Shown: one piece after another, positions 7,665-56,581 of the stretch
How the letters are laid out: the number at the start of each line of letters is the position of its first letter
Numbering within the stretch: the first letter of the stretch is position 1
NCBI GenBank assembly: GCA_016839275.1
Contig: JAEOUM010000117.1
Span: 63,861-127,860, forward strand
Length of the DNA: 64,000 nucleotides
Origin: Candidatus Thorarchaeota archaeon
GTDB taxonomy: Archaea; Asgardarchaeota; Thorarchaeia; Thorarchaeales; Thorarchaeaceae
Direction of reading: 5' to 3'
Notes under the pieces: generated by a model
Told to the model about the DNA's origin: nothing
The model's input: the letters and a program-made list of their open reading frames with translations, nothing else
The model's database searches: none
Translations under genes and position numbers: made by a program

Positions 7665-7821
7665 TTTCTCGGACAAACTGTACGCCTCTAGAAAGTGGCC
7701 GATTGCGAGGATTATAAAGCCTTTGCTACAAGAACTTTGCAAGATGTGACCTGAGCGGAAGAGTCAACTTGCAGTGACACACATTCAGGTTCAATAATAC
7801 ACTAGACCAAAGGTTACTGTA

Positions 7822-8811
7822 ATGCCACTTATCTGTCTTGGACTTGAAGGAACTGCACACTCATTCGGTGCTGGCATAGTCACAAGTGAGGGTGTTGTAC
7901 TTGCAAATGAATGGGACATGCTAAAACCGTCTCAAGGAGGCATCCATCCCCGTGAAGCAAGTAGACATCACTCTGATTTTGGTCCAAGTATCATTAGTAA
8001 GGCATTCGAAACTGCAGATATCAATTACAGGGATATTGATTTGATAGCCTTCTCGAGAGGTCCTGGCCTGGGTCCCTGTTTGAGGACTACGGCCACAATG
8101 GCGAGAACACTTGCAGTAAAACTTGGAATTCCTCTGGTAGATGTCAATCATTGTGTTGCTCACATAGAGATAGGCAATCTTGAGTCTGGCTTCGATGATC
8201 CGGTGACAGTTTATGTTTCAGGAGGAAACACTCAGGTAATTGCGTATGCTGGAGGGCGTTTCAGAACCTTTGGAGAAACACTAGACATTGCAATCGGAAA
8301 CATGCTAGATGTACTTGGTCGCCACTTTGGCATGCCCTTTCCAGCAGGTCCGATAATAGAGAAGGAGGCAAGGGCGGGTAGAACATTCTATAGTCTTCCT
8401 TACTCTGTTAAGGGTATGGATATCAGCTATTCAGGAATGCTTACTGCGGCAAAAAGACTATTCTCGGAAGGAATTCCAATCCCAGATATTTGTTTCAGTG
8501 TTCAGGAAACCTCGTTCGGTATGCTTGCCGAAATTGCTGAAAGAGCCATAGCACACACTAAAAAGAAGGAGCTTCTTCTGACTGGAGGTGTTGCACGCAA
8601 CAATCGCTTAACAGAGATTCTATCAGGAGTGTCAGAACGGCACGAAGCACGATTTCATAGAGTTTCTCCTTCTCTAGCTGGTGATCAGGGAGCGATGATT
8701 GCATGGAATGGTATCTTACAGTACAAGTCTGGTCATGAAATTAAAATCAGCAGTTCTCATGTTCTACCCAAATGGAGAACTGATGAGCAAGATATACTAT
8801 GGAGAAAATGA
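7822..8811 (+). CDS. kae1: KEOPS subunit Kae1 (tRNA t6A37 threonylcarbamoyltransferase)
   Basis: MPLICLGLEGTAHSFGAGIV N-terminus; ASKHA/Kae1 metal-binding His pair (HCVAH). Confidence 0.85.
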   Translation: MPLICLGLEGTAHSFGAGIVTSEGVVLANEWDMLKPSQGGIHPREASRHHSDFGPSIISKAFETADINYRDIDLIAFSRGPGLGPCLRTTATMARTLAVKLGIPLVDVNHCVAHIEIGNLESGFDDPVTVYVSGGNTQVIAYAGGRFRTFGETLDIAIGNMLDVLGRHFGMPFPAGPIIEKEARAGRTFYSLPYSVKGMDISYSGMLTAAKRLFSEGIPIPDICFSVQETSFGMLAEIAERAIAHTKKKELLLTGGVARNNRLTEILSGVSERHEARFHRVSPSLAGDQGAMIAWNGILQYKSGHEIKISSSHVLPKWRTDEQDILWRK

Positions 8812-22949: not shown

Positions 22950-22956
22950 AATCAGA

Positions 22957-24204
22957 CTATCCTAGGATGTCCTTTGCTGCCTTGCTGAGTCTGATGTCAT
23001 CATCAAGAATGGCACCAATCTGTTTCTTACTCACAGCTAGCTTGATTTTCTTTGTACGTCCATAACGCCCCTTCGAAATCACTGTTGTATTGATAAGACC
23101 AAGCATATCCAACTCTGAGATCAAGTCAGAAACGCGTCTCTGTGTCAATATATCTAATGAAAGAGTCTTCGCAATGTCTGAATAGACATTGAAACACTCT
23201 CCTGTGACAATATCATTTTGTCCCTTATCAGCAAGTGCATACACTGCAAACAATACTGCCTTTGATTGCATTGGCAGTGTTTTTACGGCTTCAGTTATTG
23301 TGTCCCTCTCGATTACCTTTTGAGCATCTCTTACATGCTCTTGGCTAACCTTCGCATCTCCTCTCCGCTCTGCTAGTTCTCCTGCGGTTCTTAATAGATC
23401 AAGTGCACGTCGTGCGTCCCCATGTTCTTGTGCAGCTAGTGCACCAACAAGATTAATGACGCCCTCATCTGCAACTGCATCTTTATTGAATGCAATCTCC
23501 ACACGCTGTTGCAGAATGCCTCTCAGCTCAACAGCATTGTATGGGGCAAAGATGACCTCCTCCTCTCCAAGTGTGGATAGCACCCTGGGGTCGAGCATCT
23601 CTTTGAAGGTCAGATCATTACTTATTCCTATTATTGATATTCGGCTTCTATCAAGTTCGCTATTCATTCTAGTTAATCCGTATAGGATATCATTGCCCTG
23701 ACTAACATCTCGTTTCACAAGATAGTCCACTTCATCTAGCACTACAACCATAATGCTCTGGTCTGAATCAAGTTGCCTCTTGAAGATTGATCTTATCTCA
23801 TCAGTTGGCAATCCTGTAAATGGAACATCTGACCCGTCAGGCATTGTTGCATTAATTGCATCACAGAGTTGTCGGAGCACTCTGTAGTTTGTTCCAACAA
23901 TTCTACAATTTATTAGTGCAGTCAAAGGAGGGGTGAGTCTACTCTCCTTAGCCTTTTTTACTAGTAGATCTAGCACATATCGCGCTACAACAGTTTTACC
24001 AGTGCCAGTCTTACCATAACACAGAATGTTGGATGGGGGAGCACCCCGTAATGCAGGTCCCAAGATAGACCCAATCTTGTTCATCTGATCATCCCTATAT
24101 GGAAGGCTCTCTGGCACATACGTGGCTCTTAGAGCAGTTCTATCCTTGAAAATATCTTGACCTTGCAAAAACTTGTCAAATAGTTTATCGAGAGGCTTTT
24201 CCAT
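22957..24204 (-). CDS. cdc6: Orc1/Cdc6 replication initiator; the ORF track extends the N-terminus to 24270
   Basis: Walker A GKTGTGKTVVARYV; Walker B VVLDEVDYL; C-terminal winged helix; N-terminus MEKPLDKLFDKFL... aligns to archaeal Cdc6 starts. Confidence 0.9.
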   Translation of the reverse strand: MEKPLDKLFDKFLQGQDIFKDRTALRATYVPESLPYRDDQMNKIGSILGPALRGAPPSNILCYGKTGTGKTVVARYVLDLLVKKAKESRLTPPLTALINCRIVGTNYRVLRQLCDAINATMPDGSDVPFTGLPTDEIRSIFKRQLDSDQSIMVVVLDEVDYLVKRDVSQGNDILYGLTRMNSELDRSRISIIGISNDLTFKEMLDPRVLSTLGEEEVIFAPYNAVELRGILQQRVEIAFNKDAVADEGVINLVGALAAQEHGDARRALDLLRTAGELAERRGDAKVSQEHVRDAQKVIERDTITEAVKTLPMQSKAVLFAVYALADKGQNDIVTGECFNVYSDIAKTLSLDILTQRRVSDLISELDMLGLINTTVISKGRYGRTKKIKLAVSKKQIGAILDDDIRLSKAAKDILG

Positions 24205-24421
24205 CCCACAATACTCCTGTCTATAACTCGAGGTATGAAACCTACACTTATGGCTCTTAAACACTTCCATAAGAAGTTGAGGTAAGTTCCATTGGACTTC
24301 AATTGGAACCTATGGAGCATATGGAAAAAAGAGTAGGTATTACCAGTTAAGTACCAATAGTACTATTCATCTAGTTATCACTGTCATCTGTGTCTACAGA
24401 CAACTCTTCCGGTGACATAAT
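24205..24421. promoter_or_regulatory. Putative replication origin (oriC) upstream of orc1/cdc6
   Basis: Inverted repeat GTTCCATTGGAC/TTCAATTGGAAC at 24287..24310 resembles ORB/mini-ORB cores (TCCANTGGAA), followed by an AT-rich stretch; next to cdc6 and near the polD small subunit, as in Pyrococcus. Confidence 0.4.
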
Positions 24422-25060
24422 TTGCGTCTAAGGGACCTTGAGATTGCACTTGAATCCATATCACGTACTGGAGAGTATGATGTTTCATTGGAACAATATC
24501 CCACTCCTGCCAAAATCGCCTCTGCAATCCTTTTTGCTGCTCAGATGGAACACGGAGACATAACGAGTAAGACTGTTTGCGATTTGGGATGTGGCGATGG
24601 AATATTTGCACTTGGAGCGGCTCTTCTTGATGCGCATCATGTGATTGGAATTGATGTACAAAGCAAAGCCTTAAAGGCGTCACAAATGAATTCACGATTG
24701 CTCGGGATAGAAGACACAGTAGACTGGGTATTAGGAGACGTCTCCTCTTTTCAGCTACGAAGTCTTGTCGACACTGTGGTTAGCAACCCACCGTTTGGTG
24801 TCAAGAAAAGAGGTGCTGACCTGAGATTCCTACAAAAAGCAATCTCAATTGCCGATGTGACCTATAGCATACACCTTGCAGGTGACAAGAACAGAGTCTT
24901 CCTGAAAAATGAAGTCGAGAAGCTTGGTGCAAGAGTGACACAAATCGAAACTTTCCAATTTCCAATAGGTAAATTGTTCGATTACCATAAAAAAAGTATC
25001 CATATGATTGATGTAGACCTCTATCGAATATGTTCCAAAGAGTGTGAACCGAATGGCTGA
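24422..25060 (+). CDS. Class I SAM-dependent methyltransferase with NPPFG motif (METTL5/HemK-like, putative RNA m6A MTase)
   Basis: DLGCGDGIFALGAAL motif I; VSNPPFG motif IV. Confidence 0.7.
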   Translation: MRLRDLEIALESISRTGEYDVSLEQYPTPAKIASAILFAAQMEHGDITSKTVCDLGCGDGIFALGAALLDAHHVIGIDVQSKALKASQMNSRLLGIEDTVDWVLGDVSSFQLRSLVDTVVSNPPFGVKKRGADLRFLQKAISIADVTYSIHLAGDKNRVFLKNEVEKLGARVTQIETFQFPIGKLFDYHKKSIHMIDVDLYRICSKECEPNG

Positions 25061-31005: not shown

Positions 31006-31632
31006 ATGTCATTTCTACAAACTTTTAATATAGGCATTAAATGGCTGAGCACTCCCCGAGAAACGCATCAAATGGTTGTGGTGTATCCTATGACTGAAAT
31101 GGACGAACAAAGTGGTCCACCAATTACTTTGATAGACCCAATTGATATGTCGAAGCTAGATACCAAGTTTCGAGAGCAAATCAAAAGCATGCCAAATGGC
31201 GAAGAACTCTCTGCCTGTTTTGCCTGCTCTACGTGTACTGCAGCATGTCCAATTGCGAATATTTGGCAATACAAACCGCATCAACTCATCCGGATGATCA
31301 TTCTCGGAATGAAAGAGGAAGTACTTTCCTCCAATGAGATATGGCTTTGCTTAACCTGTTTTCAATGTCAGGAACGTTGCCCGCAGAAAGTCCGGGTAAC
31401 AGACATTTTCTTTGATTGTAAGAATCTTGCTGCTGAAGAAGGAAAAGTTCCTCCCAATATCATTGGCCTAGGAAAAGAACTACTTGAGAAAGGTCAACTT
31501 TACACTGTGACAGCTGACTGGGAGCGCGAAGACTTGGGTCTTGAACCCGCTGTCCCCGGCTTATCAGTCGATTCTATGAAGAATACATTGAAGAAAACCC
31601 GGACCAACAAGCTGGTGGAGGGTGGTGAGTAA
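31006..31632 (+). CDS. hdrC: Heterodisulfide reductase subunit C-like (2 x [4Fe-4S])
   Basis: CFACSTCTAACPI and CLTCFQCQERCP. Confidence 0.7.
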   Translation: MSFLQTFNIGIKWLSTPRETHQMVVVYPMTEMDEQSGPPITLIDPIDMSKLDTKFREQIKSMPNGEELSACFACSTCTAACPIANIWQYKPHQLIRMIILGMKEEVLSSNEIWLCLTCFQCQERCPQKVRVTDIFFDCKNLAAEEGKVPPNIIGLGKELLEKGQLYTVTADWEREDLGLEPAVPGLSVDSMKNTLKKTRTNKLVEGGE

Positions 31633-32500
31633 GGTGCCAGTATTCAATCTATACATGGGTTGTAGTGTACCTGCAAACTACCCCAATTACGAAGCGGCTA
31701 TGCTGAAAGTCGCAGAAACATATGACATCCAATTAGAATACATGGAAGGTGTCGGATGTTGTGGTAGCCCCAACCTTCGTGCAATTGACTATCTGGGATG
31801 GCTCACCATAAATGCAAGAACTCTAGCCATCGCAGAGAAGAACGGTCATGACATTGTCACGCCTTGCAACGGGTGTTTTGGATCACTCAAGGACGTCTAC
31901 CATTTTCTCAAGCATGATGCTAATTACAGGAAGCAAGTCAATGACATTCTGAAGAAAGACGGTTTGGAGTTCAAGGGTACAATTACTCCCCGTCATTTTG
32001 TTGAAGCTCTGTACACCGATATCGGTATTGAAGAGATAGGGAAAAAGATCACTAAACCATTAGATGGAGTTGGAATTGCCATTCACTATGGTTGTCATCT
32101 TCTGCGTCCTATTGATGTGACTGAATTCAAGCCAGAATTTCTGAACGATCTTATTCAGGCAACTGGTGCTTCAGTTGTAGAGTACCCACTGTGGAAACAA
32201 TGTTGTGGCGCAACAGTTCTACCTGTTGACGAAAACCTAGCAATCCGGCTTGCTCGTGATAAGCTAAAATCAATGAAAGAATCAGGAGCGGAATTCATTG
32301 CTGTGGTCTGTCCAGCCTGTGGAAATCAGCTTGATTTACAACAGCTGGGGCTGAAGGAATCATATGGTGAGGAGTTCAACTTACCAGTACTTCTATACCC
32401 CCAGATTCTTGGCCTAGCTTTAGGGATGACTGAAGAAGAAGTAGGACTCAACATGAACAGGGTCCCTGCTGATTCTATCTTGAATCATTTGACAGGGTGA
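31622..32500 (+). CDS. hdrB: Heterodisulfide reductase subunit B-like (two CCG domains)
   Basis: CCG motifs GCCGSP...C...C and QCCGAT...CPACGNQ. Confidence 0.75.
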   Translation: MVSKVPVFNLYMGCSVPANYPNYEAAMLKVAETYDIQLEYMEGVGCCGSPNLRAIDYLGWLTINARTLAIAEKNGHDIVTPCNGCFGSLKDVYHFLKHDANYRKQVNDILKKDGLEFKGTITPRHFVEALYTDIGIEEIGKKITKPLDGVGIAIHYGCHLLRPIDVTEFKPEFLNDLIQATGASVVEYPLWKQCCGATVLPVDENLAIRLARDKLKSMKESGAEFIAVVCPACGNQLDLQQLGLKESYGEEFNLPVLLYPQILGLALGMTEEEVGLNMNRVPADSILNHLTG

Positions 32501-33762
32501 GGCGGATGAGTGCGTCTAATCCGGTCCTCATAATTGGAGCTGGCGTTGCAGGTATGACTGCTGCTGTAGAGCTTGCAGATTCAGGGATTAAGGCAGTGCT
32601 TGTTGAAAGACAAGAAACCGTAGGCGGCAATGCACTTGACCTCTACAAGGCATTCCCAACCGATGATTGTTTTTACTGCTTTGAAGGAAATCGCTGGCGT
32701 CCTGGAATTCGTAAGTGCTTCTATAGGAGTGCACTCATTGATCAGCCCAATATATCACTGAAAATGAATAGCGAAGTGAATACCATTTCTGGTACTCCTG
32801 GCCAATTCACAGTAACACTAAGTGTAGGTCCACAGTATATTGATCCAAAGAAATGTACGATGTGCGGTCTTTGTCTAGAAAAGTCAAAAGCATTCCATCT
32901 GATATCTCCCCAGTGCCAACCTCAAGCAGTCGTATATAATCCTTCAATAAATGATGATGGTGCTAAACAGGCTGAGGAGGAGTGCCCCACCAAGGCAATC
33001 AGCTTGAATGCACAACCCACCGAGGAAATAATCAAAGTATCGGATATCATTATTGCAACTGGATATCATGAAATGAAACCAGTCAACATGGATGAGTATA
33101 GCTACGGAAAACATCCTAACATTATAACACAATTAGAACTTGCAAAGATAATTGACCCAAATGGTGAGTCCAACGGTGTACCTCTAAAACCATCTGATGG
33201 AAAACCTGTGAAAAGAGTCATGATGGTTCAATGTGTGGGAAGTAGGGATGAAAACTATTATCCCTATTGTTCAAAGATATGTTGTGTCTTCGCTCTCAAA
33301 CATGCCAATATTCTCATGCAAGAACGAGATGGAGTTCAAGTCAGTGTTGTGTACATGGACATCCGTACTTATGATAGGTATGAACGGTACTATCATACAG
33401 CTCGAGAGTCTGGTGTTGAATTTATCCGAGGAAGGGTATCCCTTATACAACCTCGTGAAGACGGCTCCTTGGACATAGTTGTCTATGATTCGCTCTTGAA
33501 CAAATATCTGAAATTTTCAGTGGATCTTTTTGTTCTATCATCAGCTCTAGAACCACCAGAGGGTACAAACAAACTCATCGAAAGCCTCGGGTTAAAATCA
33601 GCAAGTGGATTTGTTGGAATCGCAGATCCAAAAACAGAAAACGAAGTCATAGTGGGCGACCACATCTATGCTTGTGGTACAGCATTGGGCCCTGCAGAAG
33701 TTCCTGAGAGCGTGACCCAAGCCCGAGCAGCAGTATCTAAGATACTCCAGAGTAGGAAGTGA
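32497..33762 (+). CDS. hdrA: HdrA-like FAD-dependent oxidoreductase (short form)
   Basis: FAD fold IIGAGVAGMTAAVELA; HdrA signature VQCVGSRDENYYPYCSKICCVFALKHA; ferredoxin CTMCGLCLEKS. Confidence 0.7.
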   Translation: MRRMSASNPVLIIGAGVAGMTAAVELADSGIKAVLVERQETVGGNALDLYKAFPTDDCFYCFEGNRWRPGIRKCFYRSALIDQPNISLKMNSEVNTISGTPGQFTVTLSVGPQYIDPKKCTMCGLCLEKSKAFHLISPQCQPQAVVYNPSINDDGAKQAEEECPTKAISLNAQPTEEIIKVSDIIIATGYHEMKPVNMDEYSYGKHPNIITQLELAKIIDPNGESNGVPLKPSDGKPVKRVMMVQCVGSRDENYYPYCSKICCVFALKHANILMQERDGVQVSVVYMDIRTYDRYERYYHTARESGVEFIRGRVSLIQPREDGSLDIVVYDSLLNKYLKFSVDLFVLSSALEPPEGTNKLIESLGLKSASGFVGIADPKTENEVIVGDHIYACGTALGPAEVPESVTQARAAVSKILQSRK

Positions 33763-33771
33763 AACTGATAG

Positions 33772-35937
33772 ATGGATGATAATAAATCAGCAGCACTCAT
33801 CTGTACTTGCGGCAAACAACTTCAGTTGAAATATGACTTCCTAGAAACCCAAGTCAGCAAGATGAACCTAGTAGCTTCGGCGACGGTTCATGATTTTGTC
33901 TGTCAGGAAGAAGGTCTCGCGAAAATCGCAGAGACTCTCAAGGCAAATGACGGTCATCTTGTAATTGCAGCCTGCTCAAGTCAAAAAATCCAACCCCGAA
34001 TCGATCAATATCTCAAGTCACACGACATTGATAGCACCCAGATCCAATATGTGAACATCAGAGAACACTCCGCTTGGGTACACAAGGACATTGATGAAGC
34101 AACTAAAAAGTCTGCAGACATGATTCGCGGTACATTAGCAAGGTCTGCGAAAGCGGTAAAACGATCAGTGGAACAGAAAGAGGTCTCTCCTCATGTCACA
34201 GTCATTGGTGGAGGGATTGCTGGTATTGAATCTGCACTTAGCCTCTCGAATCTGGGATACAAAGTCGTTCTTCTAGAAATCAAAGACGAACTTGGTGGGC
34301 ATGTACAAAGCCTTCCTGTTGTTGCTCCGACAGGAAAATCGGGCAAAGAGATACTAAGCGGTCGATTGGAAGCTATCAAGAATGATAAAGACATCACAAT
34401 AATGACCAAGGTTCGCGTCAAATTTGTTTCTGGAGAACAAGGTAACTTCTCCATACACTATTTGTCAGATGATGACGAAGAAAAAACATTGAACACTTCA
34501 GCTATAGTCCTAGCTACTGGATTCAAAGAGTTCAAACCTACATCCATGGAAGAATATCGCTATGGAAAGAATCCTGATGTAATCACACAATTCGAACTCT
34601 CATGTATGTTGTCCGAGGGTAAACTAGCCCGTCCCTCTGATGGTGCACCAATCAAAGAAGTAGTGATGGTTCAGTGTGTTGGTAGTAGGTCTGAGGACTA
34701 TAAGAAGGACTGTAGTAAATTATGCTGTACCTTCGCAATTGACAATTCATTAGAGATACTAGAAAGAATACCAGATGCTACTGTTCGAATAGTCTACATG
34801 GACATTAGAGTTCCCTTTGAGAATGAGATGATATACAAAGAGTCCCGCGAGAAAGGAGTAGATTATATTCGCGGTCGTGTCAGCATGACCTGGGAGCATG
34901 AAGGTAAAACATACGTACGCATCTATGACTCCTTACTCGATAAGTATCTAGATATCCCAGTGGATTTACTGGTACTCTCTTCCGCTATTCTTCCTTCAGA
35001 TGGGACTTTAGAACTCTCTGAAACGCTAGGCTATGCGGTTGAAGATGATGGACATGTAAAGGAACTTTATGGGAAACTTCGACGTAATGAAACCCGTCGG
35101 CGGGGTGTCGTTGCAGTTGGAGGGATTACTCGTCCACAGTTTGTTTTTGAAGCTATTACAGACGCTCAAGCTGGAGCTCTCGTGATTCATAATGAGCTTC
35201 AGGGTGGAACTATTCACACAGTTGCGCGTGGAGCTGTTCTAAACGTCGATGACTGTGTTGGATGCAGTCTCTGCGCTCAGCAGTGTCCACGTGGGGTTCC
35301 TCTCATGATTGAACAGACAGAAGCGGAAGAATCTGATGAAGAACAGAAGATTCTTTTCAAAGCAGCAATTGACACATTGAACTGTCATGCATGTGGAGTA
35401 TGTCAAAGCCTATGCCCCTCTGGTGCTACACAGCTTAATTTTCTCTCTAATGATCAGCTATGGTCCGAGATAGATGCGGTACTTGAGGGTGCAGGTCCAG
35501 AGAATCCGATTACACTCTGTTTCTATTGTGAAGAGTGTTCAGTATCAACAATAGATATTGTTGGAACTAGGAGGATGGAATACCCTGCTAGCACACGTCT
35601 TATTCCAGTTCCCTGTGCAGGCCGTGTAAGTATCATAGACATTCTCAAAGCCTTTGAACATGGTGCAAGCACAGTGATGATTGCGGCCTGTGAGAAGGAC
35701 CGTTGTCATATTGGAGGGACCGGCAATGAAATCGCTCAGGTGCAGGTAGACGTTGCTCGAGATATTTTGAACGCGATTGGGTGGAAAGGAGAACGTGTAG
35801 ATATGTTCAGAATGTTTAGTGCGGAGCCTGAACGCTTTACTAAGGCTGTAAACGAAATGGTGAAGCGTGCCAAGGATTTAGGTCCGACTCCTGTCCATGA
35901 TGGAACTGCTGGTAAATGGAGGGAGATGAGCGAGTGA
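33772..35937 (+). CDS. hdrA: HdrA-like FAD oxidoreductase fused to a C-terminal MvhD-like domain
   Basis: FAD fold VTVIGGGIAGIESAL; VQCVGSRSEDYKKDCSKLCCTFA; 2 x [4Fe-4S] CVGCSLCAQQCP/CHACGVCQSLCP; MvhD pattern PCAGRVSIIDILKAFEHGASTVMIAACEKDRCH. Confidence 0.7.
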   Translation: MDDNKSAALICTCGKQLQLKYDFLETQVSKMNLVASATVHDFVCQEEGLAKIAETLKANDGHLVIAACSSQKIQPRIDQYLKSHDIDSTQIQYVNIREHSAWVHKDIDEATKKSADMIRGTLARSAKAVKRSVEQKEVSPHVTVIGGGIAGIESALSLSNLGYKVVLLEIKDELGGHVQSLPVVAPTGKSGKEILSGRLEAIKNDKDITIMTKVRVKFVSGEQGNFSIHYLSDDDEEKTLNTSAIVLATGFKEFKPTSMEEYRYGKNPDVITQFELSCMLSEGKLARPSDGAPIKEVVMVQCVGSRSEDYKKDCSKLCCTFAIDNSLEILERIPDATVRIVYMDIRVPFENEMIYKESREKGVDYIRGRVSMTWEHEGKTYVRIYDSLLDKYLDIPVDLLVLSSAILPSDGTLELSETLGYAVEDDGHVKELYGKLRRNETRRRGVVAVGGITRPQFVFEAITDAQAGALVIHNELQGGTIHTVARGAVLNVDDCVGCSLCAQQCPRGVPLMIEQTEAEESDEEQKILFKAAIDTLNCHACGVCQSLCPSGATQLNFLSNDQLWSEIDAVLEGAGPENPITLCFYCEECSVSTIDIVGTRRMEYPASTRLIPVPCAGRVSIIDILKAFEHGASTVMIAACEKDRCHIGGTGNEIAQVQVDVARDILNAIGWKGERVDMFRMFSAEPERFTKAVNEMVKRAKDLGPTPVHDGTAGKWREMSE

Positions 35938-38198
35938 GTCATGCAACCCCTGAGAAGGTAATTGCACCAAAAAGACAACGAATGTTGGATATGGTATTAG
36001 CACTAAGCGGGCTTAAAGAAGAGTCAACGATTCCACTGAGTAAAGTAAAGGATGAACTTGAAAATCTAAAGAAAGAACTTGCTCCCCTTACTGATGCAAT
36101 CATTGCATTTCCTGACTCCTATTTCGAGAAATTTCTAGAATCTGTAAAGAAGAGTAATATTGCTGCTGAGATAAACGACAGAGGCGTTCTCAAGGAATCA
36201 ATCTCTAATCTTGAACAGGCTTTGTCAACAGCTGACTCTGTATCATTGAAAGCACTGAATAAAATACTTACAGACGCTCTCAATAGAATGACCGAGGTAG
36301 AGGAACACCACGATGTAAGTGCAGATATTGATTTGGCTTCGACTATCTCGACTCTATCTGATTTTATTTCTGAAATCGAGCTGATTACAGACGAATTTGA
36401 GAAGGCTGCTGAAACTGAAGCAGATTCTGCAAGGTCTGAATTAGTAACGCTAGCTGAATCCCTTAAAGAAACCCAAGAAAAGATCGAAAAAGATCCAGAC
36501 GCTGCGCTAGACGAGCTTCAAAAACTAGGATCTCAGACGCGCTATGGCCCCGGATTGAGGTCAATAGCACAGGTGAAACGAGGTAAGAGAGAAGGTCGAA
36601 TCGATGATGCTCAGTTCAACAGACTTGTCAAAGAGAATCTACTTACTGAAATCAATCGTGGAGTAATCTTGTTTATTCTTTCGAAAATGGGATCCAAGAC
36701 CGTTGTACAAATTGGAGAACTCATGCAGACGCCGCCTCAAACAATCCAGAACGCTCTAGTGACTATGATACAGAGAGGGGAAGTTGAGATGGTTGGTCTT
36801 GATGGAGATGCTCCTGTATTCTCAAGGGTGCTCACAGAAACACCCAACGCAACATTGCTCATGAAGAGGATTGTCCAACAGGTTCGGGGGATGGTAAAAT
36901 CCCTAGAAGGTGAAACTACTGAAACCATGAAAGAGGCTCTCGGAAGGCTGCAAACATTACTTGAACGTCTAAAGATACTTGGAGCCTACAATGAGGCTCT
37001 ACTATCTGACAGTATTAACAAGCTCCGAGAAGCAGTCGATAGTGTCACAGAATCCGTATTAACTGCCCAGACGACCGACGATGCTGATAATCTCAAGCTA
37101 CTCATATCTGCAGGACTTGAAGCCTTTGCCCGGTTTCGTCTTAAAATCACTCTAGAAAAAGGGCCCTCGCTTGTTTCAGGTACCAATGTCTATGGCGAAA
37201 AACTTGACCCTGAAGTATACAAGAACATGATGGATACCTATCTTGATAATGAGCTTGAGAGAGGTACGATTCTGATTCTTATTCGAGAATTAGGGGCACT
37301 AACAGTACATGATCTTGCAGAGAGAACAAACATTCCTTCCGATAGAATACTCCGACATTTGCTCAGAATGAAGCGTGATGAGCTTCTTATAATTGCTGGG
37401 GAGAATCACGGGTATATTCTCTATGATGTGCCAAGGACGCTCTCAGAGGCTGAAATCTCAATACAGACTACGAGTGATTTGGCTCTGCATCTATCCGCGG
37501 CTAGGGAAGAGCTTCAGAGGATATTGAGCGACCTGAAAGCATCGGATATTGGGAAATTAGCTAACTCGCTTGAGGTCTTTTCGAAAGCACGTGATAAGCT
37601 CACATCTGTTCGTGTGCAGGGTACGGTAATTGATGAAACCACCCTGAACGATGTGGAGGATAAGATACGGTCCGCGGTCTTACTCACTTATCGAACGCGC
37701 GCTAAGATTCCGAGCACCAGACCAAAGGTGACAATTGAGGATCTATTGGATATTGATGTTCCATCTGTTCTCGATGAGTATAGAAGTCAAATGGGCTATG
37801 CACCACTTCTAGGATTTGGAACAATAGAATGGGAACAATCAAAATGCCTCGGTTGCAAGTCATGTGAGATTACCTGTCCGGAACATGCAATAGAACTGAA
37901 ACCACGAATAGAGATACCTAAGTTTTTCGAGATCTCTGACGATGCTCTCTCTCAGTTACCCTCCAACCGGTCTCTCTTTTACAGAACTGTTCAAAATCTT
38001 GCTAAGATAAAACCATCAAACGAGCTCATCCTTGAAAAGGAAGCTCCAGGATTTGGTACTGTAGAAGTGGATCTTTGGCTATGTGTGGCTTGTCGTACGT
38101 GTGTACGAAGATGTCCGGGTCCTGAAGGCGGCGCTCTGGAGTTAGAGCTGAAATGGAGTCTTCCAGAAGTTGTGAAGCATATTACCTCGACTTCATGA
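35916..38198 (+). CDS. Novel 760-aa protein with coiled coil, two winged-helix segments and a C-terminal di-cluster ferredoxin domain
   Basis: Overlaps the hdrA stop by 22 nt. Winged-helix-like segments are ...GVILFILSKMGSKTVVQIGELMQTPPQTIQNALVTMIQRGEV... and ...GTILILIRELGALTVHDLAERTNIPSDRILRHLLRMKRDEL.... C-terminus carries CLGCKSCEITCPEHA and CVACRTCVRRCPG. Confidence 0.5.
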   Translation: MEGDERVSHATPEKVIAPKRQRMLDMVLALSGLKEESTIPLSKVKDELENLKKELAPLTDAIIAFPDSYFEKFLESVKKSNIAAEINDRGVLKESISNLEQALSTADSVSLKALNKILTDALNRMTEVEEHHDVSADIDLASTISTLSDFISEIELITDEFEKAAETEADSARSELVTLAESLKETQEKIEKDPDAALDELQKLGSQTRYGPGLRSIAQVKRGKREGRIDDAQFNRLVKENLLTEINRGVILFILSKMGSKTVVQIGELMQTPPQTIQNALVTMIQRGEVEMVGLDGDAPVFSRVLTETPNATLLMKRIVQQVRGMVKSLEGETTETMKEALGRLQTLLERLKILGAYNEALLSDSINKLREAVDSVTESVLTAQTTDDADNLKLLISAGLEAFARFRLKITLEKGPSLVSGTNVYGEKLDPEVYKNMMDTYLDNELERGTILILIRELGALTVHDLAERTNIPSDRILRHLLRMKRDELLIIAGENHGYILYDVPRTLSEAEISIQTTSDLALHLSAAREELQRILSDLKASDIGKLANSLEVFSKARDKLTSVRVQGTVIDETTLNDVEDKIRSAVLLTYRTRAKIPSTRPKVTIEDLLDIDVPSVLDEYRSQMGYAPLLGFGTIEWEQSKCLGCKSCEITCPEHAIELKPRIEIPKFFEISDDALSQLPSNRSLFYRTVQNLAKIKPSNELILEKEAPGFGTVEVDLWLCVACRTCVRRCPGPEGGALELELKWSLPEVVKHITSTS

Positions 38199-38290
38199 TC
38201 TCACAAATCAATATCTAAGATGCCCTTTAGTAACTGACTTATACCACTTGGCGAAAGGTCAAAGGACACATAATCCTTTGAGGGAGAATT

Positions 38291-39490
38291 ATGATTGACT
38301 TCAATCTATCCGAGGAACAGCAGGAGCTTAGGAACAAGGCGCGAGTATTTGCACAGGAGTATATGATTCCCTATGCTCACTACTACGATAAGACTGGAGA
38401 ATTTCCACGTCCAATAATCAAAAAGTGTTGGGAAGAAGGACTCATGAACCTCTCAATTCCGAAGGAGTACGGAGGGCCGGGTCTAGGTTCCATTGAACAA
38501 TGTATCACTGTAGAAGAAATGGCCGCTGGTTGTGCAGGAATGACGACGAGCATCTATGTGAACTCTCTCGGCGCTGAACCAATTCTGGTGGCTGGAACCC
38601 CTGAACAAAAGGAGAAGTATCTTCGACCACTTACAGAAGATTTGAAGTTCATCAGTTTCGCCTGTTCCGAGCCGGGAATGGGATCCGATGTTGCTGGTAT
38701 CCAGACACGGGTCAAGCGGGAGGGTGACTATTATGTCCTTAATGGGTCCAAGTTCTGGATAACCAATGCTCCACACGCAGATACATTCACTGTTTTTGCA
38801 AGTCTTGATCCAAGCAAGCGACACAAAGCGCTCTGTGCATTCATTGTTGATGCTGACACTCCTGGGGTGAGGACAGGTCGGCCAGTAGAGAAGATGGGAC
38901 ATAAAGCCTCCACAACATCAGCAGTGATGTTTAGAGATGCCAAGGTCCCTATCGAGAACATGCTGGGCACTGAAGGAGAAGGTTTCAAGATAGCAATGAA
39001 GACATTTGCAATGACACGTCCATCGATTGCTGCATTTGCTACGGGTCTCGCCAGAGCTGCTATGGAATTTGCTCGTGATTATACCACTAAAAGAGCGGTT
39101 TTTGGCGAAAAACTCAACAATTTCGAAGTCATTCAGTTCAAACTAGCAGACATGTACATGAAAATAGAAGCTGCCAGATTGATGTATCTAAAGGCTGCAT
39201 GGACTGCTGACTTTGTCGGTGACTCCACAATTCCAGCAAGTGCTGCCAAAGCCTTCGCTACTGATGTGGCCATGGAGGTTGCTAGTGAGGCTGTTCAAAT
39301 CCACGGCGGTTATGGGTACATCGATCAATATCCTGTTGAGAAATTGTTCAGAGATGCTAAGCTATACCAGATCTATGAAGGAACAAGCGAGGTTCAGCGG
39401 CTGATACTCGCGCGATATGTATTCTCAGGATATGAACCTGCAATGAGTAAGATACCAAGATGGTACAACAACGAGCCACCTGATTTCTAA
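38291..39490 (+). CDS. Acyl-CoA dehydrogenase (short/medium-chain type)
   Basis: ACAD family signatures, including the C-terminal [18 protein letters not shown] motif. Confidence 0.85.
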
Positions 39491-46199: not shown

Positions 46200-46655
46200 A
46201 TGAAACTGGATGAAATAGATTCAAAGGTAATCGCAATGCTTCAGGAAGATGGGAGACAATCATTCAGTGATATCGCAAAGGCCGTCAAGAGAACGGAAGT
46301 CACAATAAGACGTCGAGTGAAACGTCTGAAGGACGAGGGCTACATCAAGCGGTTCACTGTTGTTCTTGACCCCATGAAGATAGGAAAACGGATTCGTGCA
46401 ATAATTCGTGTGAAGACAGCAATGAAGGAGTCGACAATCATCTCTAAGAAATTGAGAGCCTTCAAGGAAGTGGATGAGGCCTATTTTCTAGATGGTGCTT
46501 GTGGAGTCATTATGACTGTTACAGTAGACGATCTTACAGAACTCAGAAGTTTTCTTGAAAAACGGCTTGGTGGAATTCAAGGCATTGGCGATGCGGAAAC
46601 CTGTATCATCCTTGAAGAGATAAAATCAGCATTCTCAGGTCCTGGCGCGGAATGA
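46200..46655 (+). CDS. Lrp/AsnC-family transcriptional regulator
   Basis: N-terminal HTH LDEIDSKVIAMLQEDGRQSFSDIAKAV plus C-terminal RAM domain. Confidence 0.8.
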   Translation: MKLDEIDSKVIAMLQEDGRQSFSDIAKAVKRTEVTIRRRVKRLKDEGYIKRFTVVLDPMKIGKRIRAIIRVKTAMKESTIISKKLRAFKEVDEAYFLDGACGVIMTVTVDDLTELRSFLEKRLGGIQGIGDAETCIILEEIKSAFSGPGAE

Positions 46656-52779: not shown

Positions 52780-52958
52780 GCTCAATCTCTCCATTGACTG
52801 TTTGCCTATTCTCATACTAAAAGATAAACACTTCACTCCGAGAGTTTCACAGACAATATCCGGCGGACCTCGGCCCGAAAACGTTACTACCGATGAGTTT
52901 TTATGAATCCAGATTCAATATATAATATGAATCCAGATTCAATTAAATGTGATCTAAA

Positions 52959-53438
52959 ATGACGAGAATTTGTATTACTTCAACAGGTCCAACACTGGAA
53001 TCTCCAATCGACCCACGGTTTGGTAGATGTGCCTACTTCATAATCGCAGACCCGCAAACCTATGAGTTTGAGGCTGTTTCAAACGAAGCTGCATTGGCTC
53101 CTGGTGGCGCGGGAATTAGAGCAGCTCAGACTGTAGTATCTAAGAACGTAGAAACAGTCCTAACAGGCAGTGTGGGTCCCAATGCTTTTCCCGCGTTAAA
53201 GGATGCAAGTATCAAAATCCTCACTAATATTTCGGGAACAGTCAAGACTGCGATTGATAGATATAGGAACGACAATTTAGATGAGCTGAAGGCTCCAGGG
53301 CCCTCCAATGTAGGAAAGGGGCAAGGAGGGCCTGGTCGTGGTCTAGGCATGGGTTATGGGGGTGGCACAGGTATGGGATTTGGTCGTGGGTCTGGAGGTG
53401 GTCGAGGTCACCGTCGAAGAGGAGGTAGAAGTCTGTGA
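52959..53438 (+). CDS. NifX/NifB-like (dinitrogenase FeMo-cofactor-binding fold, COG1433) protein with Gly/Arg-rich tail
   Basis: FGRCAYFIIAD...GAGIRAAQ...VLTGSVGPNA; C-terminal GKGQGGPGRGLGMGYGGGTGMGFGRGSGGGRGHRRRGGR. Confidence 0.7.
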   Translation: MTRICITSTGPTLESPIDPRFGRCAYFIIADPQTYEFEAVSNEAALAPGGAGIRAAQTVVSKNVETVLTGSVGPNAFPALKDASIKILTNISGTVKTAIDRYRNDNLDELKAPGPSNVGKGQGGPGRGLGMGYGGGTGMGFGRGSGGGRGHRRRGGRSL

Positions 53439-53803
53439 CAACACGGATAATTATCCCAGCACAAGATTCACGAGGCATAGAAGTTGCTGAGCACTTTGGA
53501 AGAGCTCCTTTTTTTGCTGTGATTGACCTAGATGATAACGGACATACCATCGAGATGAAAGTACACCCAAATAGTGGAGAGCATTCAGGTGGAAAAGGGC
53601 ATGCTCACGACAATATCCAACAATATAATCCAAGAGCTGTGATTGTACAAGGAATGGGGCCGAGAGGAATCATGAGCTTTCAATCTCAGAATATTGCTGT
53701 GCTTCGAGCAAATAGCAACCTCGTGCAGGAACTTGTTAACGCTTATGCTCAAAATGCGCTCGAAGAGCTTACAGAGGGTTGTGCCGACGCGCATCACCAT
53801 TGA
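53435..53803 (+). CDS. NifX/NifB-like (COG1433) protein
   Basis: FGRAPFFAVIDLDD...VIVQGMGPRG; overlaps the previous stop by 4 nt. Confidence 0.7.
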   Translation: MTTRIIIPAQDSRGIEVAEHFGRAPFFAVIDLDDNGHTIEMKVHPNSGEHSGGKGHAHDNIQQYNPRAVIVQGMGPRGIMSFQSQNIAVLRANSNLVQELVNAYAQNALEELTEGCADAHHH

Positions 53804-53834
53804 AAGGAGATAGGTCAATCACAGGTGAGCTATA

Positions 53835-54677
53835 ATGATCATTACAGTGGCGTCTGGAAAAGGTGGTACTGGAAAGACGACGGTAGCAGTGAATCTTGCA
53901 TTATCGGTGCAATCTGTAAACTTGCTAGACTGTGATGTTGAGGAGCCAAATGTACACACACTTCTTCATCATACTGATACGATGACCTATCCGGTCACAG
54001 TACCTACACCTGTAGTTGACGTCGAAAAATGTTCATTGTGTGGAAAATGTTCAGAGTTTTGTCAATTCAATGCGATATTTGTGGGAAAGACGAAGACTAT
54101 GGTGTTCAATGAGATTTGTCACGCATGTGGTGGTTGTGCTTTGGTGTGTCCTGAAGGAGCAATCACAGAGGTTGCGCGTTCGATTGGCACAATTCACCAA
54201 TCGATGAGTGGGGACATTCATCTCACCTATGGCGAACTCTCTATTGGAGAACCCATAGCAACGACTGTGATACGTGAGGTAAAAACTAACATCAAGAACG
54301 GAAATACGAATATCCTAGATGCACCACCAGGAACTGCGTGTCCTGTCATTGAAACAGTACGAGGTAGTGATTTTCTCATTCTAGTGACTGAACCAACTCC
54401 CTTCGGATTACACGACTTATCTATGGCAATTGATGTGGTCAAGGAATTAGGAGTCCCCTTTGGAGTCATAGTTAATAGAGCTGGTATCGGAGATGATGGA
54501 GTTATCACATACTGCAAAGAAAATGCGACTCCAATATTAATGGAGATATCCTTCAGCCGCCGCATTGCAGAACTCTACTCCCAAGGCATCCCCTTTGTTC
54601 AAGAGATGCCTGAATGGATTGGAAAGTTCCGAGAGCTGTACAATCATATTGGGAAGGTGGTAGCAGATGCCAAGTGA
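53835..54677 (+). CDS. MinD/ParA-family P-loop ATPase with inserted 2 x [4Fe-4S] ferredoxin domain (COG1149)
   Basis: Deviant Walker A ASGKGGTGKTT; CSLCGKCSEFCQ and CHACGGCALVCP. Confidence 0.8.
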   Translation: MIITVASGKGGTGKTTVAVNLALSVQSVNLLDCDVEEPNVHTLLHHTDTMTYPVTVPTPVVDVEKCSLCGKCSEFCQFNAIFVGKTKTMVFNEICHACGGCALVCPEGAITEVARSIGTIHQSMSGDIHLTYGELSIGEPIATTVIREVKTNIKNGNTNILDAPPGTACPVIETVRGSDFLILVTEPTPFGLHDLSMAIDVVKELGVPFGVIVNRAGIGDDGVITYCKENATPILMEISFSRRIAELYSQGIPFVQEMPEWIGKFRELYNHIGKVVADAK

Positions 54678-55557
54678 GATTGCAGTAATTAGCGGAAAAG
54701 GTGGAACTGGAAAGACTACCATATGTGCTGCCCTTGGTGCCATAGCAGAAAAGACGGTCATGGCGGACTGTGATGTTGACGCTCCAGATCTTCACATTCT
54801 CCTAAATCCTACTATCAAATCATCTCGCGATTTCATTGGTTCCAAAGTCGCTGAGATTGATGAACAGATCTGCACTCAGTGCAGGCTTTGTGAAACTGCT
54901 TGCCGATTTGAAGCAATTGGTGAAAATAGAGTAGATCCGATTGCATGTGAAGGTTGTAATGTATGCGTTCAGATCTGTCCTGAAGGAGCTATCCGTATGA
55001 AAGAGCGAGTTTCAGGTCATGTCTTCAGCTCTGATACCCGTGTGGGTCTGATGGCACATGCAAAACTGATAGCTGGAGAAGGAAACTCGGGCAAGGTTGT
55101 GACTGAGGTTCGAAAACTTGCTACCCAGATGGCTTTAACCAATGAATCAAGCATAGTCTTGATTGATGGCTCTCCGGGAATTGGTTGTCCAGTGATAGCC
55201 ACTGTCACAGGGATACAATTAGGAATTGTAGTTACAGAGCCTACAATATCTGGAATCCATGACATGCGTCGGATTATCGACCTATTAAAACGATTCAGAG
55301 TCCTCAGCACCGTTATCATCAATAAATTCGACATCAATTTGGAAAACTCAAAAATGATAGAGCGTTATTGTTGTGAGAACGATATCGAGATCTTAGGAAA
55401 AATCAAGTTTGACCCCATCATGACACAATCAATGGTAGCTGCAACAACACTAACAGAGTATGCACCCAATCATGAAATATCTGTGCAGCTTCGAAAAATT
55501 TGGCTTCGTATCGTAGAGATTCTCGATAAAAAATCTCCACCTCATGCGATGGATTGA
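54667..55557 (+). CDS. MinD/ParA-family P-loop ATPase with inserted ferredoxin domain (COG1149), second copy
   Basis: ISGKGGTGKTT; CTQCRLCETACR and CEGCNVCVQICP; overlaps the previous gene by 11 nt. Confidence 0.8.
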   Translation: MPSEIAVISGKGGTGKTTICAALGAIAEKTVMADCDVDAPDLHILLNPTIKSSRDFIGSKVAEIDEQICTQCRLCETACRFEAIGENRVDPIACEGCNVCVQICPEGAIRMKERVSGHVFSSDTRVGLMAHAKLIAGEGNSGKVVTEVRKLATQMALTNESSIVLIDGSPGIGCPVIATVTGIQLGIVVTEPTISGIHDMRRIIDLLKRFRVLSTVIINKFDINLENSKMIERYCCENDIEILGKIKFDPIMTQSMVAATTLTEYAPNHEISVQLRKIWLRIVEILDKKSPPHAMD

Positions 55558-55646
55558 GTAAGTGATGTGAAATCGTGCAAGTTTGGCCCTTGTCTGCTAG
55601 TGGATAAATGTAAAAGAAACCTCATGCATTGTTTAAATGATTAGAA

Positions 55647-55958
55647 ATGCTTCGAAGAAGAAGAGGTGGTCGCGGCAGGTTTCCAATCCAGCCCAAAATA
55701 AAGATTGAACCCTTTGCCAAGAAGATGATTCCAGAGCCAAAGAGTGGAGATAATCCCATAGTCATTGATTTGGCAGAGGTTGAAGTTCTACGGCTGGTCG
55801 ACCTCGAAGGCTTGTATCAGGAACAGGCTGGATCTTCAATGGGTATTTCACGGGGTACAATATGGCGTCTTCTAGCTAGCGCTAGAGAAAAAGTTGCACG
55901 TTCTATCTATGAAGGACGGCCGCTCATGATTGGTCTTCAATCTGAGGATGAATCTTAG
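55647..55958 (+). CDS. DUF134/UPF0251 putative DNA-binding protein (sigma-70 region-4-like HTH)
   Basis: EVLRLVDLEGLYQEQAGSSMGISRGTIWRLLASAREKVA. Confidence 0.7.
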   Translation: MLRRRRGGRGRFPIQPKIKIEPFAKKMIPEPKSGDNPIVIDLAEVEVLRLVDLEGLYQEQAGSSMGISRGTIWRLLASAREKVARSIYEGRPLMIGLQSEDES

Positions 55959-56167: not shown

Positions 56168-56581
56168 TTGGACTATTCCACCCGGATTGACGCTATCATC
56201 GACTATGTAATCAGAAGACCTGCTATCCCTCGCCATTGGGATCCCGTGTCACGACCCCACGTAGCTGTATTGATGCCTGACCCTCTATCGGGAGCAGAAG
56301 TCCGCTATTACCTGTCTCGTTGTGGTGAGAGGAATTCTAATGGTCGCTCCATTCTCGAAGTGGCAGATATTGATACACTTCCTGAGGGAACCTTGTTAGA
56401 GGTGCGATTCAACGCGACACGATCCAATCTATATCAGCTTGAGCTGGTTGGAACCATTCCTTGTTGGCGATGGCTTGGTCGAAGTCAGGGTCTTCCCGAT
56501 TTCAACAGTGATGAATCAATCTACTGGGATCATGTACTCGATACTGGTACCTACACCCCACGAGATATGATTCTCGCCTGA
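56168..56581 (+). CDS. Hypothetical protein
   Basis: 137-aa ORF with no motif. Confidence 0.3.
   Translation: MDYSTRIDAIIDYVIRRPAIPRHWDPVSRPHVAVLMPDPLSGAEVRYYLSRCGERNSNGRSILEVADIDTLPEGTLLEVRFNATRSNLYQLELVGTIPCWRWLGRSQGLPDFNSDESIYWDHVLDTGTYTPRDMILA

Follow-up and report, generated by a model that had tools for sequence, protein, structure and literature searches.

A Thorarchaeotal counterpart of the ORP gene cluster: paired NifX-fold proteins, paired ferredoxin-insert ATPases and a DUF134 protein behind a conserved double palindrome

What task is served by two small proteins of the NifX fold, two P-loop ATPases with ferredoxin domains and a putative regulator, when all five are encoded side by side in an archaeon? 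The question is raised by a compact gene block in a 64,000-nucleotide (nt) stretch of Candidatus Thorarchaeota DNA (assembly GCA_016839275.1, contig JAEOUM010000117.1, positions 63,861–127,860), referred to here in its entirety as the window; the closest database relatives of the locus are Candidatus Thorarchaeota. A first-pass annotation of the sequence had described the block as uncharacterized and of unknown function. Both labels go too far: the same genes make up the published orange protein (ORP) complex of Desulfovibrio, whose components are partly characterized, and unknown function is a fair description of its physiological role only. Judged from its genes, the block is an Asgard-archaeal counterpart of the ORP cluster, a kind of locus already known and only partly understood in its physiology. 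The reading of its function favoured here, to which even probability is assigned, is that of an ORP-type iron–sulfur (Fe-S) handling operon, in which ATP and redox energy would drive the loading or mobilization of inorganic Fe-S on NifX-fold carriers. Few anaerobe-specific clusters without an assigned physiological function are as widespread as the ORP, or COG1149–COG1433, set, and the supply and storage of Fe-S in anaerobes are poorly understood. The open reading frames (ORFs) of the block are the following.

52959–53438, forward strand: NifX-fold carrier 1, ORF of 159 amino acids (aa); Pfam PF02579 (Nitro_FeMo-Co) at residues 14–103, 76.1 bits
53435–53803, forward strand: NifX-fold carrier 2, ORF of 122 aa; Pfam PF02579, 60.9 bits
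53835–54677, forward strand: ATPase A, of the Orp3/Orp4 type, ORF of 280 aa; SIMIBI P-loop ATPase with an insert for two [4Fe-4S] clusters at residues ∼59–113
54667–55557, forward strand: ATPase B, ORF of 296 aa, a paralogue of ATPase A with the same architecture
55647–55958, forward strand: DUF134/UPF0251 protein, ORF of 103 aa; Pfam PF02001, 76.8 bits

The five co-directional ORFs lie exactly where the first-pass annotation had placed them and with the overlaps that it reported, 4 nt (ATGA type) between the carriers and 11 nt between the ATPases; its domain calls agree with Pfam, whose cut-offs are 26 bits for PF02579 and 27 bits for PF02001. Identity is 26% between carriers 1 and 2 and 34% between ATPases A and B, and the four genes appear to be co-transcribed from a single promoter. 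The window was searched with Pfam over selected larger ORFs and with a hidden Markov model (HMM) of the ATPases over all ORFs of at least 60 aa. Neither search returned a nitrogenase gene, as had been stated earlier, and a role in nitrogenase maturation was therefore dropped. The HMM scan found no P-loop or NifX-like ORF beyond the block, apart from weak ferredoxin-domain matches.

Both ATPases match the CbiA/ParA P-loop families of Pfam, and their Fer4 matches are restricted to residues ∼59–113, where each protein has two CxxCxxCxxxC motifs. The inserted di-cluster ferredoxin domains proposed in the first reading are thus real, and the proteins are not ordinary MinD or Mrp. Each also has SGKGGTGKTT, a deviant Walker A of the kind that marks dimer-forming SIMIBI ATPases. 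All eight cysteines of the insert are invariant in 27 orthologues of each paralogue from Thorarchaeota and Hermodarchaeota, as are two further cysteines per ATPase, one in the motif DCDV[ED]xP[ND] and one in switch II, DxxPGxxCPV; in ATPase A these are Cys33 (DCDVEEPN) and Cys169 (DAPPGTACPV). Cysteines occur at positions 33, 66–105, 169 and 227, and no CxxC is found outside the insert, so that the C-terminal CxxC bridging motif is absent. A model of ATPase A produced with AlphaFold2 (AF2) is confident save for one insert loop (predicted local distance difference test score 85.6). The nearest fold is that of ApbC (8zkc), followed by archaeal MinD, FlhG, ATPase-type HypB and Cfd1, and then by NifH and the L-protein of dark-operative protochlorophyllide oxidoreductase (DPOR); none of the solved structures among the PDB matches contains an inserted ferredoxin domain. 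Like the Mrp/NBP35/ApbC group, the ATPases combine a deviant Walker A with a switch II of the form DxPPG. Members of that group have a C-terminal CxxC, whereas the window ATPases have the di-cluster insert and a single switch-II cysteine instead. No NCBIfam model covers the ATPases: archaeal MinD, MrpORP, ApbC, NifH, BchL and CfbC give only sub-threshold matches, that to ApbC scoring 31.9 bits against a cut-off of 348.

All-against-all BLAST comparison separates A-type and B-type ATPases into two orthologous groups, each spanning Thorarchaeota, Bathyarchaeia, Bacillota and Chloroflexota. Scores within a type are about twice those between types, and the gene order A→B is always kept. As the groups and the fixed order extend across all four lineages, the duplication is ancient, and this in turn fits an obligate heterodimer. 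Cross-domain orthology of A and B, together with the fold match to dimeric SIMIBI ATPases, ApbC foremost, suggests that the two proteins pair with each other, and obligate pairing would suit their separate orthologous groups. Two ATPase lineages that appear older than the split between Archaea and Bacteria predict such a heterodimer.

The resemblance to NifH raises the possibility that the A/B dimer is a low-potential electron donor that hydrolyses ATP to drive electrons from its ferredoxin domains into an unlinked catalytic partner, with the NifX-like proteins as accessories. ATPase B shows weak but specific similarity, in its C-terminal part, to NifH, BchL and CfbC, Fer4_NifH included, and both NifH and the DPOR L-protein are among the fold matches. 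The invariant CD motif is accompanied in both ATPases by a switch-II cysteine seven residues past the Walker B aspartate, a spacing equal, by residue numbering and not by alignment, to that of Asp125 and Cys132 in NifH. The reductases of this group, however, have two bridging cysteines per subunit and a NifDK-like partner. In the window ATPases only one candidate bridging cysteine per subunit was identified. The loci scanned with NifX, ATPase and DUF134 HMMs contain no NifDK-, BchNB- or CfbD-like partner, and none came to light in the Pfam annotation of related loci; the conserved partners are carriers rather than enzymes. The NCBIfam reductase models are also far from satisfied (nifH 26.2 bits against a cut-off of 394, BchL 32.7 against 345, CfbC 27.5 against 402). 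An electron-donor function is thus considered unlikely.

A closer parallel is provided by the ORP cluster. According to two later papers (PMC6345978, PMC3897727), this gene set was first published in Fievet 2011. In Desulfovibrio vulgaris Hildenborough it comprises Orp3, Orp4, Orp5, Orp7, Orp8 and Orp9/MrpORP (Pardoux 2019, PMC6345978): Orp3 and Orp4 are paralogues with two [4Fe-4S] ferredoxin motifs each, Orp5, Orp7 and Orp8 are NifX-like ‘Di-Nase’ proteins, and Orp9 is a fusion of Mrp/NBP35 to Di-Nase. MrpORP passes Fe-S clusters to Orp3, Orp4 and Orp8 in vitro (PMC6345978). The earlier suggestion that two copies of each component denote a hetero-oligomeric machine gains from both sides of this comparison, from the A/B orthologous groups with their fixed order and from the co-purification of Orp3 with Orp4 and Orp8 (PMC6345978). 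The block in the window shares with the ORP set two paralogous P-loop ATPases, each with both ferredoxin motifs and their eight invariant cysteines, single-domain Di-Nase (PF02579) proteins alongside them, restriction to anaerobes and the expectation of a hetero-oligomer. Homology to a cluster containing MrpORP runs through Peptoclostridium acidaminophilum, one replicon of which carries, under PGAP names, genes for DUF134, NifB/NifX, two ATP-binding proteins and the ‘iron-sulfur cluster carrier protein MrpORP’, whereas the likeness to the D. vulgaris proteins themselves is drawn from their published description. ATPase A is 38% identical to the A-type ATPase of this Peptoclostridium cluster (211 bits, blastp), and tblastn to the same locus gives 34.9% identity (E 1e-46). 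Both carriers, in addition, have weak NCBIfam matches to the Di-Nase part of NF041136, the MrpORP model.

The two systems differ in several respects. The Mrp/NBP35–Di-Nase fusion is absent from the 64-kb window; Peptoclostridium has it, and the clusters of Bathyarchaeia include an unfused Mrp/NBP35 ATPase. Expression of the D. vulgaris cluster is under the control of sigma-54, OrpR and integration host factor, a form of control that the window operon lacks because its host is an archaeon; in its stead there is a DUF134 gene and a promoter with a TATA-like box and a double palindrome. Finally, one window carrier has a cationic tail of a kind recalling IssA. To the ORP literature the present analysis adds the A/B orthology, this tail, fusions of DUF134 with NifX domains, two cis-elements and a natural cassette polymorphism, additions that are incremental and testable.

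The tail belongs to carrier 1. Its C-terminal 54 aa include 22 glycines and nine arginines or lysines and have an isoelectric point (pI) of 11.9, against 6.2 for the core; across orthologues the sequence of the tail drifts and its composition is kept. Cys5, Cys24 and the motif DPRFGRC, which contains Cys24, are invariant in 27 orthologues. Carrier 2 is acidic and tailless and conserves His20, His50, His56, His58, Cys116 and a C-terminal pair of histidines; its relatives in the PDB are the structural-genomics proteins TM1816 (1o13/1t3v), PH0822 and MTH1175. IssA and IssX consist of a NifX-like domain and a cationic, glycine-rich tail that binds thioferrate, and a mesophilic ‘IssX’ clade has glycine-rich tails of high pI (Vaccaro 2017, PMC5524996). 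Carrier 1 has a similar plan, an N-terminal NifX-like (IPR003731) domain followed by a disordered, glycine-rich, high-pI tail. It differs from IssA of Pyrococcus furiosus (PF2025) in the length of the tail (54 versus 70 aa) and its paucity of aromatic residues (two versus 14), in the absence of a proline-rich linker and in its setting, IssA not having been described as working with ATPases. In Methanococcus voltae grown on pyrite, the IssA-like Mvol_0689 and Mvol_0693 are 2.3–5-fold up and thioferrate-like iron accumulates (PMC8516115); the products of two genes in between, Mvol_0691 and Mvol_0692, annotated as CbiA-family with predicted Fe-S motifs, rise within the same range (PMC8516115, supplement). 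The Mvol_0689–0693 run may represent an equivalent module, to judge by locus numbering and annotation rather than by sequence comparison. A carrier with an IssA-like tail would link the ORP system to Fe-S storage.

The NifX fold itself allows for another ligand. Since NifX and NafY bind complex metalloclusters and Orp8 homologues hold [S2MoS2CuS2MoS2] non-covalently (PMC6345978), the carriers could bind a non-iron cluster of the Mo/W–Cu–S or a similar type that the ATPases assemble or insert, in the service of Mo/W homeostasis or detoxification; the invariant histidine-rich site of carrier 2 would suit such a heterometallic chaperone. Nevertheless, the Pfam-scanned ORFs of the window and the called genes of related loci include none for the transport of Mo/W or Cu or for their cofactors. 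The partners found elsewhere, Mrp/NBP35 and DUF59, are Fe-S assembly proteins, and the IssA-like tail and the response to pyrite point to Fe-S as well. This alternative is clearly unlikely.

The surroundings of the genes in other genomes bear on the same question. A scan of the genome collection anchored on DUF134 yielded 80 archaeal loci, which were annotated with purpose-built HMMs; the scan used a narrow DUF134 alignment, and the 80 loci are therefore biased towards archaea. Thorarchaeota and Hermodarchaeota share a layout in which a YchF-GTPase gene on the minus strand is followed by two NifX genes, ATPase A, ATPase B and DUF134, with a minus-strand DUF5320 gene before DUF134 in some species. 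The cluster of Bathyarchaeia has a Mrp/NBP35 ATPase at its head (PF10609, E 7.5e-98), two NifX genes, ATPases A and B, a third NifX gene, DUF5320 and DUF134, and at the far end a divergent helix-turn-helix (HTH) gene. On a Chloroflexota plasmid, DUF5320 and PadR genes are divergent from NifX, two ATPases, DUF59/FeS_assembly_P and peroxiredoxin. The first-pass claim that the NifX–ATPase–DUF134 triad recurs away from nitrogenase is thus correct for Thorarchaeota, Hermodarchaeota, Bathyarchaeia and Bacillota; Chloroflexota keep NifX and both ATPases with a PadR regulator and not DUF134. The DUF5320 proteins of the extended module in relatives (L004 7726–8055, L063 7420–7800 and L086 4742–5005, all on the minus strand) have an N-terminal MPRGDxTGP motif, a region rich in Gly, Arg, Trp and Tyr, and a C-terminal coiled coil; their composition is like that of the IssA tail.

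At the syntenic site between YchF and DUF134, the cassette of carriers and ATPases is present in 26 of ∼49 species of Thorarchaeota and Hermodarchaeota, absent from 22 and reduced to a single NifX gene in one. The loci without it are as follows.

Cassette-less loci: L007, L010, L013, L015–L019, L022–L027, L031, L032, L035–L037, L042, L045, L046

A 361-aa ‘ATPase’ near DUF134 in a complete Thorarchaeota chromosome (L010) was a ferredoxin-only false positive. The closest relative, L005, is 86–91% identical to the window in nucleotide sequence and 96% identical in DUF134, and between its positions 7770 and 8010 it lacks window positions 53044–55605, a clean deletion of 2.56 kb. What survives directly 5′ of DUF134 is the promoter with its two palindromes, in each of which the outer base has changed from T to C, and the first ∼85 nt of carrier 1. 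Some lineages thus appear able to do without the cassette, which is absent from 22 species and deleted in L005, and its polymorphism offers a natural comparative test of the need for it. DUF134, by contrast, is retained in the cassette-less genomes and would therefore have a role independent of the cassette. A conserved ORF of ∼140 aa (137 aa in the window) lies 120–330 nt 3′ of DUF134 in ∼50 loci of Thorarchaeota and Hermodarchaeota, with or without the cassette; DUF134 and this ORF, beside the YchF-like GTPase, form the constant unit in Thorarchaeota. In the window the ORF occupies 56168–56581 (forward strand) and has no Pfam, NCBIfam or PADLOC match.

Absence from about half of the Thorarchaeota species also bears on the original suggestion for the ORP complex, in which MinD-family ATPases place a structure such as the septum and NifX-like proteins act as adaptors. 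The ORP cluster was termed anaerobe-specific in the papers that suggested, and did not demonstrate, a role in septum positioning (PMC3897727, PMC4672049), and MrpORP has a polar localization (PMC3897727, PMC4672049, PMC6345978). Archaeal MinD structures are indeed among the top fold matches, and the best NCBIfam match of the ATPases is TIGR01969, minD_arch. With scores of 50.8 and 49.1 bits, however, they stay below its cut-off of 201.75, and TIGR01968 (MinD) gives 26 and 47.8 bits against 212.9, so that both family models fail. The insert with its eight invariant cysteines and the constant partners, namely NifX-fold proteins, Mrp/NBP35, DUF59 and DUF5320, point to metallocluster chemistry; no division genes adjoin the block, and the M. 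voltae run thought to be equivalent responds to the Fe/S source. A spatial-positioning role is very unlikely.

On the preferred reading, Fe-S handling, ATPases A and B would constitute a heterodimer that depends on ATP and belongs to the MinD/Mrp/NifH type. Nucleotide-driven closing, coupled through four [4Fe-4S] clusters, would bring about the reduction and transfer of inorganic Fe-S species held on the NifX-fold carriers. Carrier 1, with Cys5, Cys24 and its cationic Gly/Arg tail, would store an anionic Fe-S polymer in the manner of IssA/IssX; the His-rich carrier 2, with Cys116, would be a partner in transfer or sensing. As a net result, stored Fe-S would be loaded or mobilized to supply clusters where oxygen is lacking and sulfide present. 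Architecture, conservation, gene linkage, fusions, A/B orthology and cis-elements are observed directly, whereas the pairing of A with B, the identity of the bound species, the direction of its transfer and the repressor itself are inferred. Transcription would probably be repressed by a dimeric factor on the two palindromes beside the TATA box and start site, and DUF134 would probably report cluster status through a NifX-fold partner. Among the readings considered this one is the best supported: it draws on the invariant Fe-S cysteines, the MrpORP cluster of Peptoclostridium, the Mrp/NBP35 and DUF5320 genes of Bathyarchaeia and the DUF59 and peroxiredoxin genes of Chloroflexota.

Several observations weigh against it. 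The window contains neither a Mrp/MrpORP nor a DUF5320 gene. The cassette seems dispensable, being missing from 22 of the ∼49 syntenic species and freshly deleted in the closest relative, and DUF134 is kept where the cassette is not, with a recognition helix invariant even in lineages without the operator-like element of the module promoter (box-1, below). The carrier 1 tail has two aromatic residues versus 14 in the 70 of P. furiosus IssA, carrier 1 is at most a candidate member of the IssA clade, and the equivalence of the M. voltae run is one of annotation and numbering rather than sequences. The authors of the Desulfovibrio work proposed a role in cell division (PMC3897727, PMC4672049), and the orange protein itself binds a Mo–Cu–S cluster, not Fe-S.

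How the operon is controlled is a separate question. The region at 52.85–52.96 kb, upstream of the block, contains a strongly conserved double palindrome (box-1) next to a core promoter.

52888–52904, forward strand: core promoter, TACCGATGAG followed by the TATA-like box TTTTTAT, read directly and conserved in 19 orthologous promoters of Thorarchaeota and Hermodarchaeota
52903–52918, no strand assigned: operator-like palindrome box-1a, A-TGAATC-CA-GATTCA-A, an exact match that abuts the TATA-like box
52927–52942, no strand assigned: operator-like palindrome box-1b, identical to box-1a, 24 bp downstream from centre to centre and 31 nt before the ATG

The window sequence 5′ of carrier 1 reads TACCGATGAG-TTTTTAT-GAATCCAGATTCA-ATATATAATA-TGAATCCAGATTCA-...-ATG, and the consensus of the 19 promoters is TACCGATGAnTTTTTATG. 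By analogy with archaeal promoter architecture, TACCGATGAG-TTTTTAT would constitute a transcription factor B recognition element and TATA box. A GAGGT(G) sequence ∼8 nt before the ATG of carrier 1 suggests that the messenger RNA made from this promoter is leadered.

The two box-1 copies of the window are perfect 6-2-6 palindromes; in relatives they are 7-2-7 (ATGAATC-N2-GATTCAT). The pair is kept in ∼25 species of Thorarchaeota and Hermodarchaeota whose DUF134 proteins are just 60–77% identical, with sites ∼55 and 32 nt 5′ of the ATG, a constant spacing of 23–24 bp and the first copy abutting TTT(T/A)(T/A)AT. Among relatives there is free variation in the central dinucleotide and in the flanks, and one-sided changes (GATTCA to TATTCA) occur without compensation on the other arm. 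Box-1 thus looks more like a site recognized by a protein than like a stem in RNA; a hairpin reading, which would in addition demand stems with 2-nt loops, was dropped. The layout resembles, by analogy, an archaeal repressor operator pair laid over core promoter and start site. Box-1 is limited to the module promoters of Thorarchaeota and Hermodarchaeota, and in metagenomic data all nine low-GC archaeal contigs that have the exact double motif and a NifX-like gene have the motif directly 5′ of that gene. A wider box-1 regulon was rejected: archaeal metagenome matches with recognizable genes all belong to the same operon, ∼45 are high-GC bacterial and the rest are miscellaneous. A lone box-1-like match in L010 falls inside the start of an Lrp/AsnC gene and is a coding coincidence.

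The high-GC matches are soil-bacterial contigs with the exact double palindrome GTGAATCnnGATTCAC-N8-GTGAATCnnGATTCAC (loci L087–L147; for example L115 5568–7909 and L126 7567–10278). In those inspected it is flanked by a gene for a TetR-family regulator and one for an AidB-like acyl-CoA dehydrogenase; it is presumably a TetR-family operator, and its resemblance to the archaeal operon looks convergent. As the same palindrome adjoins TetR genes, a motif of the box-1 type is not diagnostic of one regulator family.

The second element, box-2, consists of TGTGCATATGCACA and a copy of TGTGCATA and stands beside the TATA box at the promoter of DUF134 and of the divergent DUF5320. It is present in many loci of Thorarchaeota and in nearly all of the ∼25 loci of Bathyarchaeia with upstream sequence; examples between divergent DUF5320 and DUF134 genes are L004 ∼8075–8100, L050 ∼7865–7925 and L061 ∼7900–7960. 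In a few Thorarchaeota species (L004, L047), box-2 variants stand in for box-1 at the module promoter. A CATATGC-centred inverted repeat, TTGACATATGCCA...TGGCATATGTCAA, lies 5′ of DUF134 in Peptoclostridium (L085 5079–5131). The window has no good TGTGCATA or box-2 copy near DUF134, only ATGCATT upstream at ∼55625. Both cis-elements are defined precisely enough for binding assays.

Is DUF134 the factor that binds box-1? The protein of the window matches PF02001 over its full length and above the gathering score (76.8 versus 27 bits), has sigma-70 region-4 HTH matches and scores 91.9 bits with NF003257, under the equivalog cut-off of 115. Its AF2 model has a disordered, arginine-rich N-terminus (residues 1–37) and a three-helix, sigma-70-region-4-like HTH (residues 42–89), and Foldseek aligns the model to sigma region 4 structures at 0.5–0.9 Å root-mean-square deviation over ∼45 residues. 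In archaea and Bacillota DUF134 is linked to NifX/ATPase genes, and no other HTH gene is linked to the cassette in Thorarchaeota. In other organisms, some of them bacterial, DUF134 is fused to Nitro_FeMo-Co/NifX domains (P0314, P0327, P0341), an architecture that strongly suggests joint action of DUF134 with a ligand-binding partner of the NifX fold. The fusions also hint at what the family senses. The window DUF134 has no cysteine. Many bacterial members, unlike it, have an N-terminal cysteine motif and C-terminal Zn-ribbon or Gly/Arg extensions; in P0339, P0351, P0378, P0349 and P0361 these are an N-terminal MPRPxCCRR, Cys-rich C-terminal stretches resembling a Zn ribbon and, after these, Gly/Arg-rich tails of the carrier 1 kind, which hints at metal or cluster binding inside the regulator family itself. 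A literature search on DUF134/UPF0251/COG1342, COG1149 and COG1433 found nothing functional and no characterized DUF134 member.

At slightly less than even probability, DUF134 is not the repressor of the operon: an unlinked factor would occupy box-1, and DUF134 would bind a TGTGCATA-type site and control itself, DUF5320 or the 137-aa gene. DUF134 proteins from Thorarchaeota to Bathyarchaeia share one invariant recognition helix, SRGT[IV]WRLL, yet box-1 is confined to the promoters described above, and it is the TGTGCATATGCACA/TGTGCATA element that adjoins the DUF134 TATA box in both groups; the Peptoclostridium inverted repeat resembles the same element. DUF134 and the 137-aa ORF are retained in all 22 cassette-less species, and the identical palindrome beside soil-bacterial TetR genes means that the motif is not specific to DUF134. 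Control of the operon by DUF134 is favoured, on the other hand, by its standing as the sole HTH gene tied to the cassette in Thorarchaeota, by a direct functional tie visible in the NifX fusions and in bacterial operons that begin with DUF134, and by the want of a good TGTGCATA site near DUF134 in the window.

A bolder proposal, rather unlikely as it stands, is that DUF134 and its NifX-fold partner, fused in some bacteria and separate here, form a previously undescribed Fe-S- or thioferrate-sensing transcription switch that governs the ATP- and redox-driven deposit and remobilization of inorganic Fe-S on IssA-like carriers. If true, there would be an anaerobe-specific pathway of Fe-S storage and supply common to Asgard archaea, Bathyarchaeia, methanogens and anaerobic bacteria, and the ORP complex would gain a function.

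Bathyarchaeia have a second, lineage-specific candidate regulator, an HTH protein of ∼190 aa encoded divergently from the module (L061 2060–2629, minus strand; upstream of the Mrp-type gene in L063, L069, L073, L082 and L084). The intergenic region, which is conserved, harbours palindromes of the GTTTATTTTATAAAC type. The Lrp/AsnC gene of the window (46200–46655) was considered as an orthologue of these divergent genes and rejected, the similarity being at HTH level only.

Two further ideas about the block were dropped. Anti-phage defence found no PADLOC match for any of six proteins, and for structured RNA in or around the genes Rfam gave just a sub-threshold microRNA match. The neighbours in the window are archaeal housekeeping genes, among them L15e, the YchF-like GTPase, Orc1/Cdc6, the PolD small subunit, NurA/HerA and CTP synthase. 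A run at 31006–39490 (forward strand) comprises HdrC-like (Fer4) and HdrB-like (CCG) ORFs, an FAD oxidoreductase, an HdrA–MvhD fusion (FlpD), polyferredoxin and MarR-like ORFs and then an acyl-CoA dehydrogenase, and looks like an Asgard-type heterodisulfide-reductase-like electron-bifurcation cluster. The genes for the PolD small subunit (forward strand) and Orc1/Cdc6 (reverse strand) lie back to back at 21339–25043, GC skew turns from negative to positive at ∼24 kb, and the intergenic region after Cdc6, ∼24271–25043, may be a replication origin.

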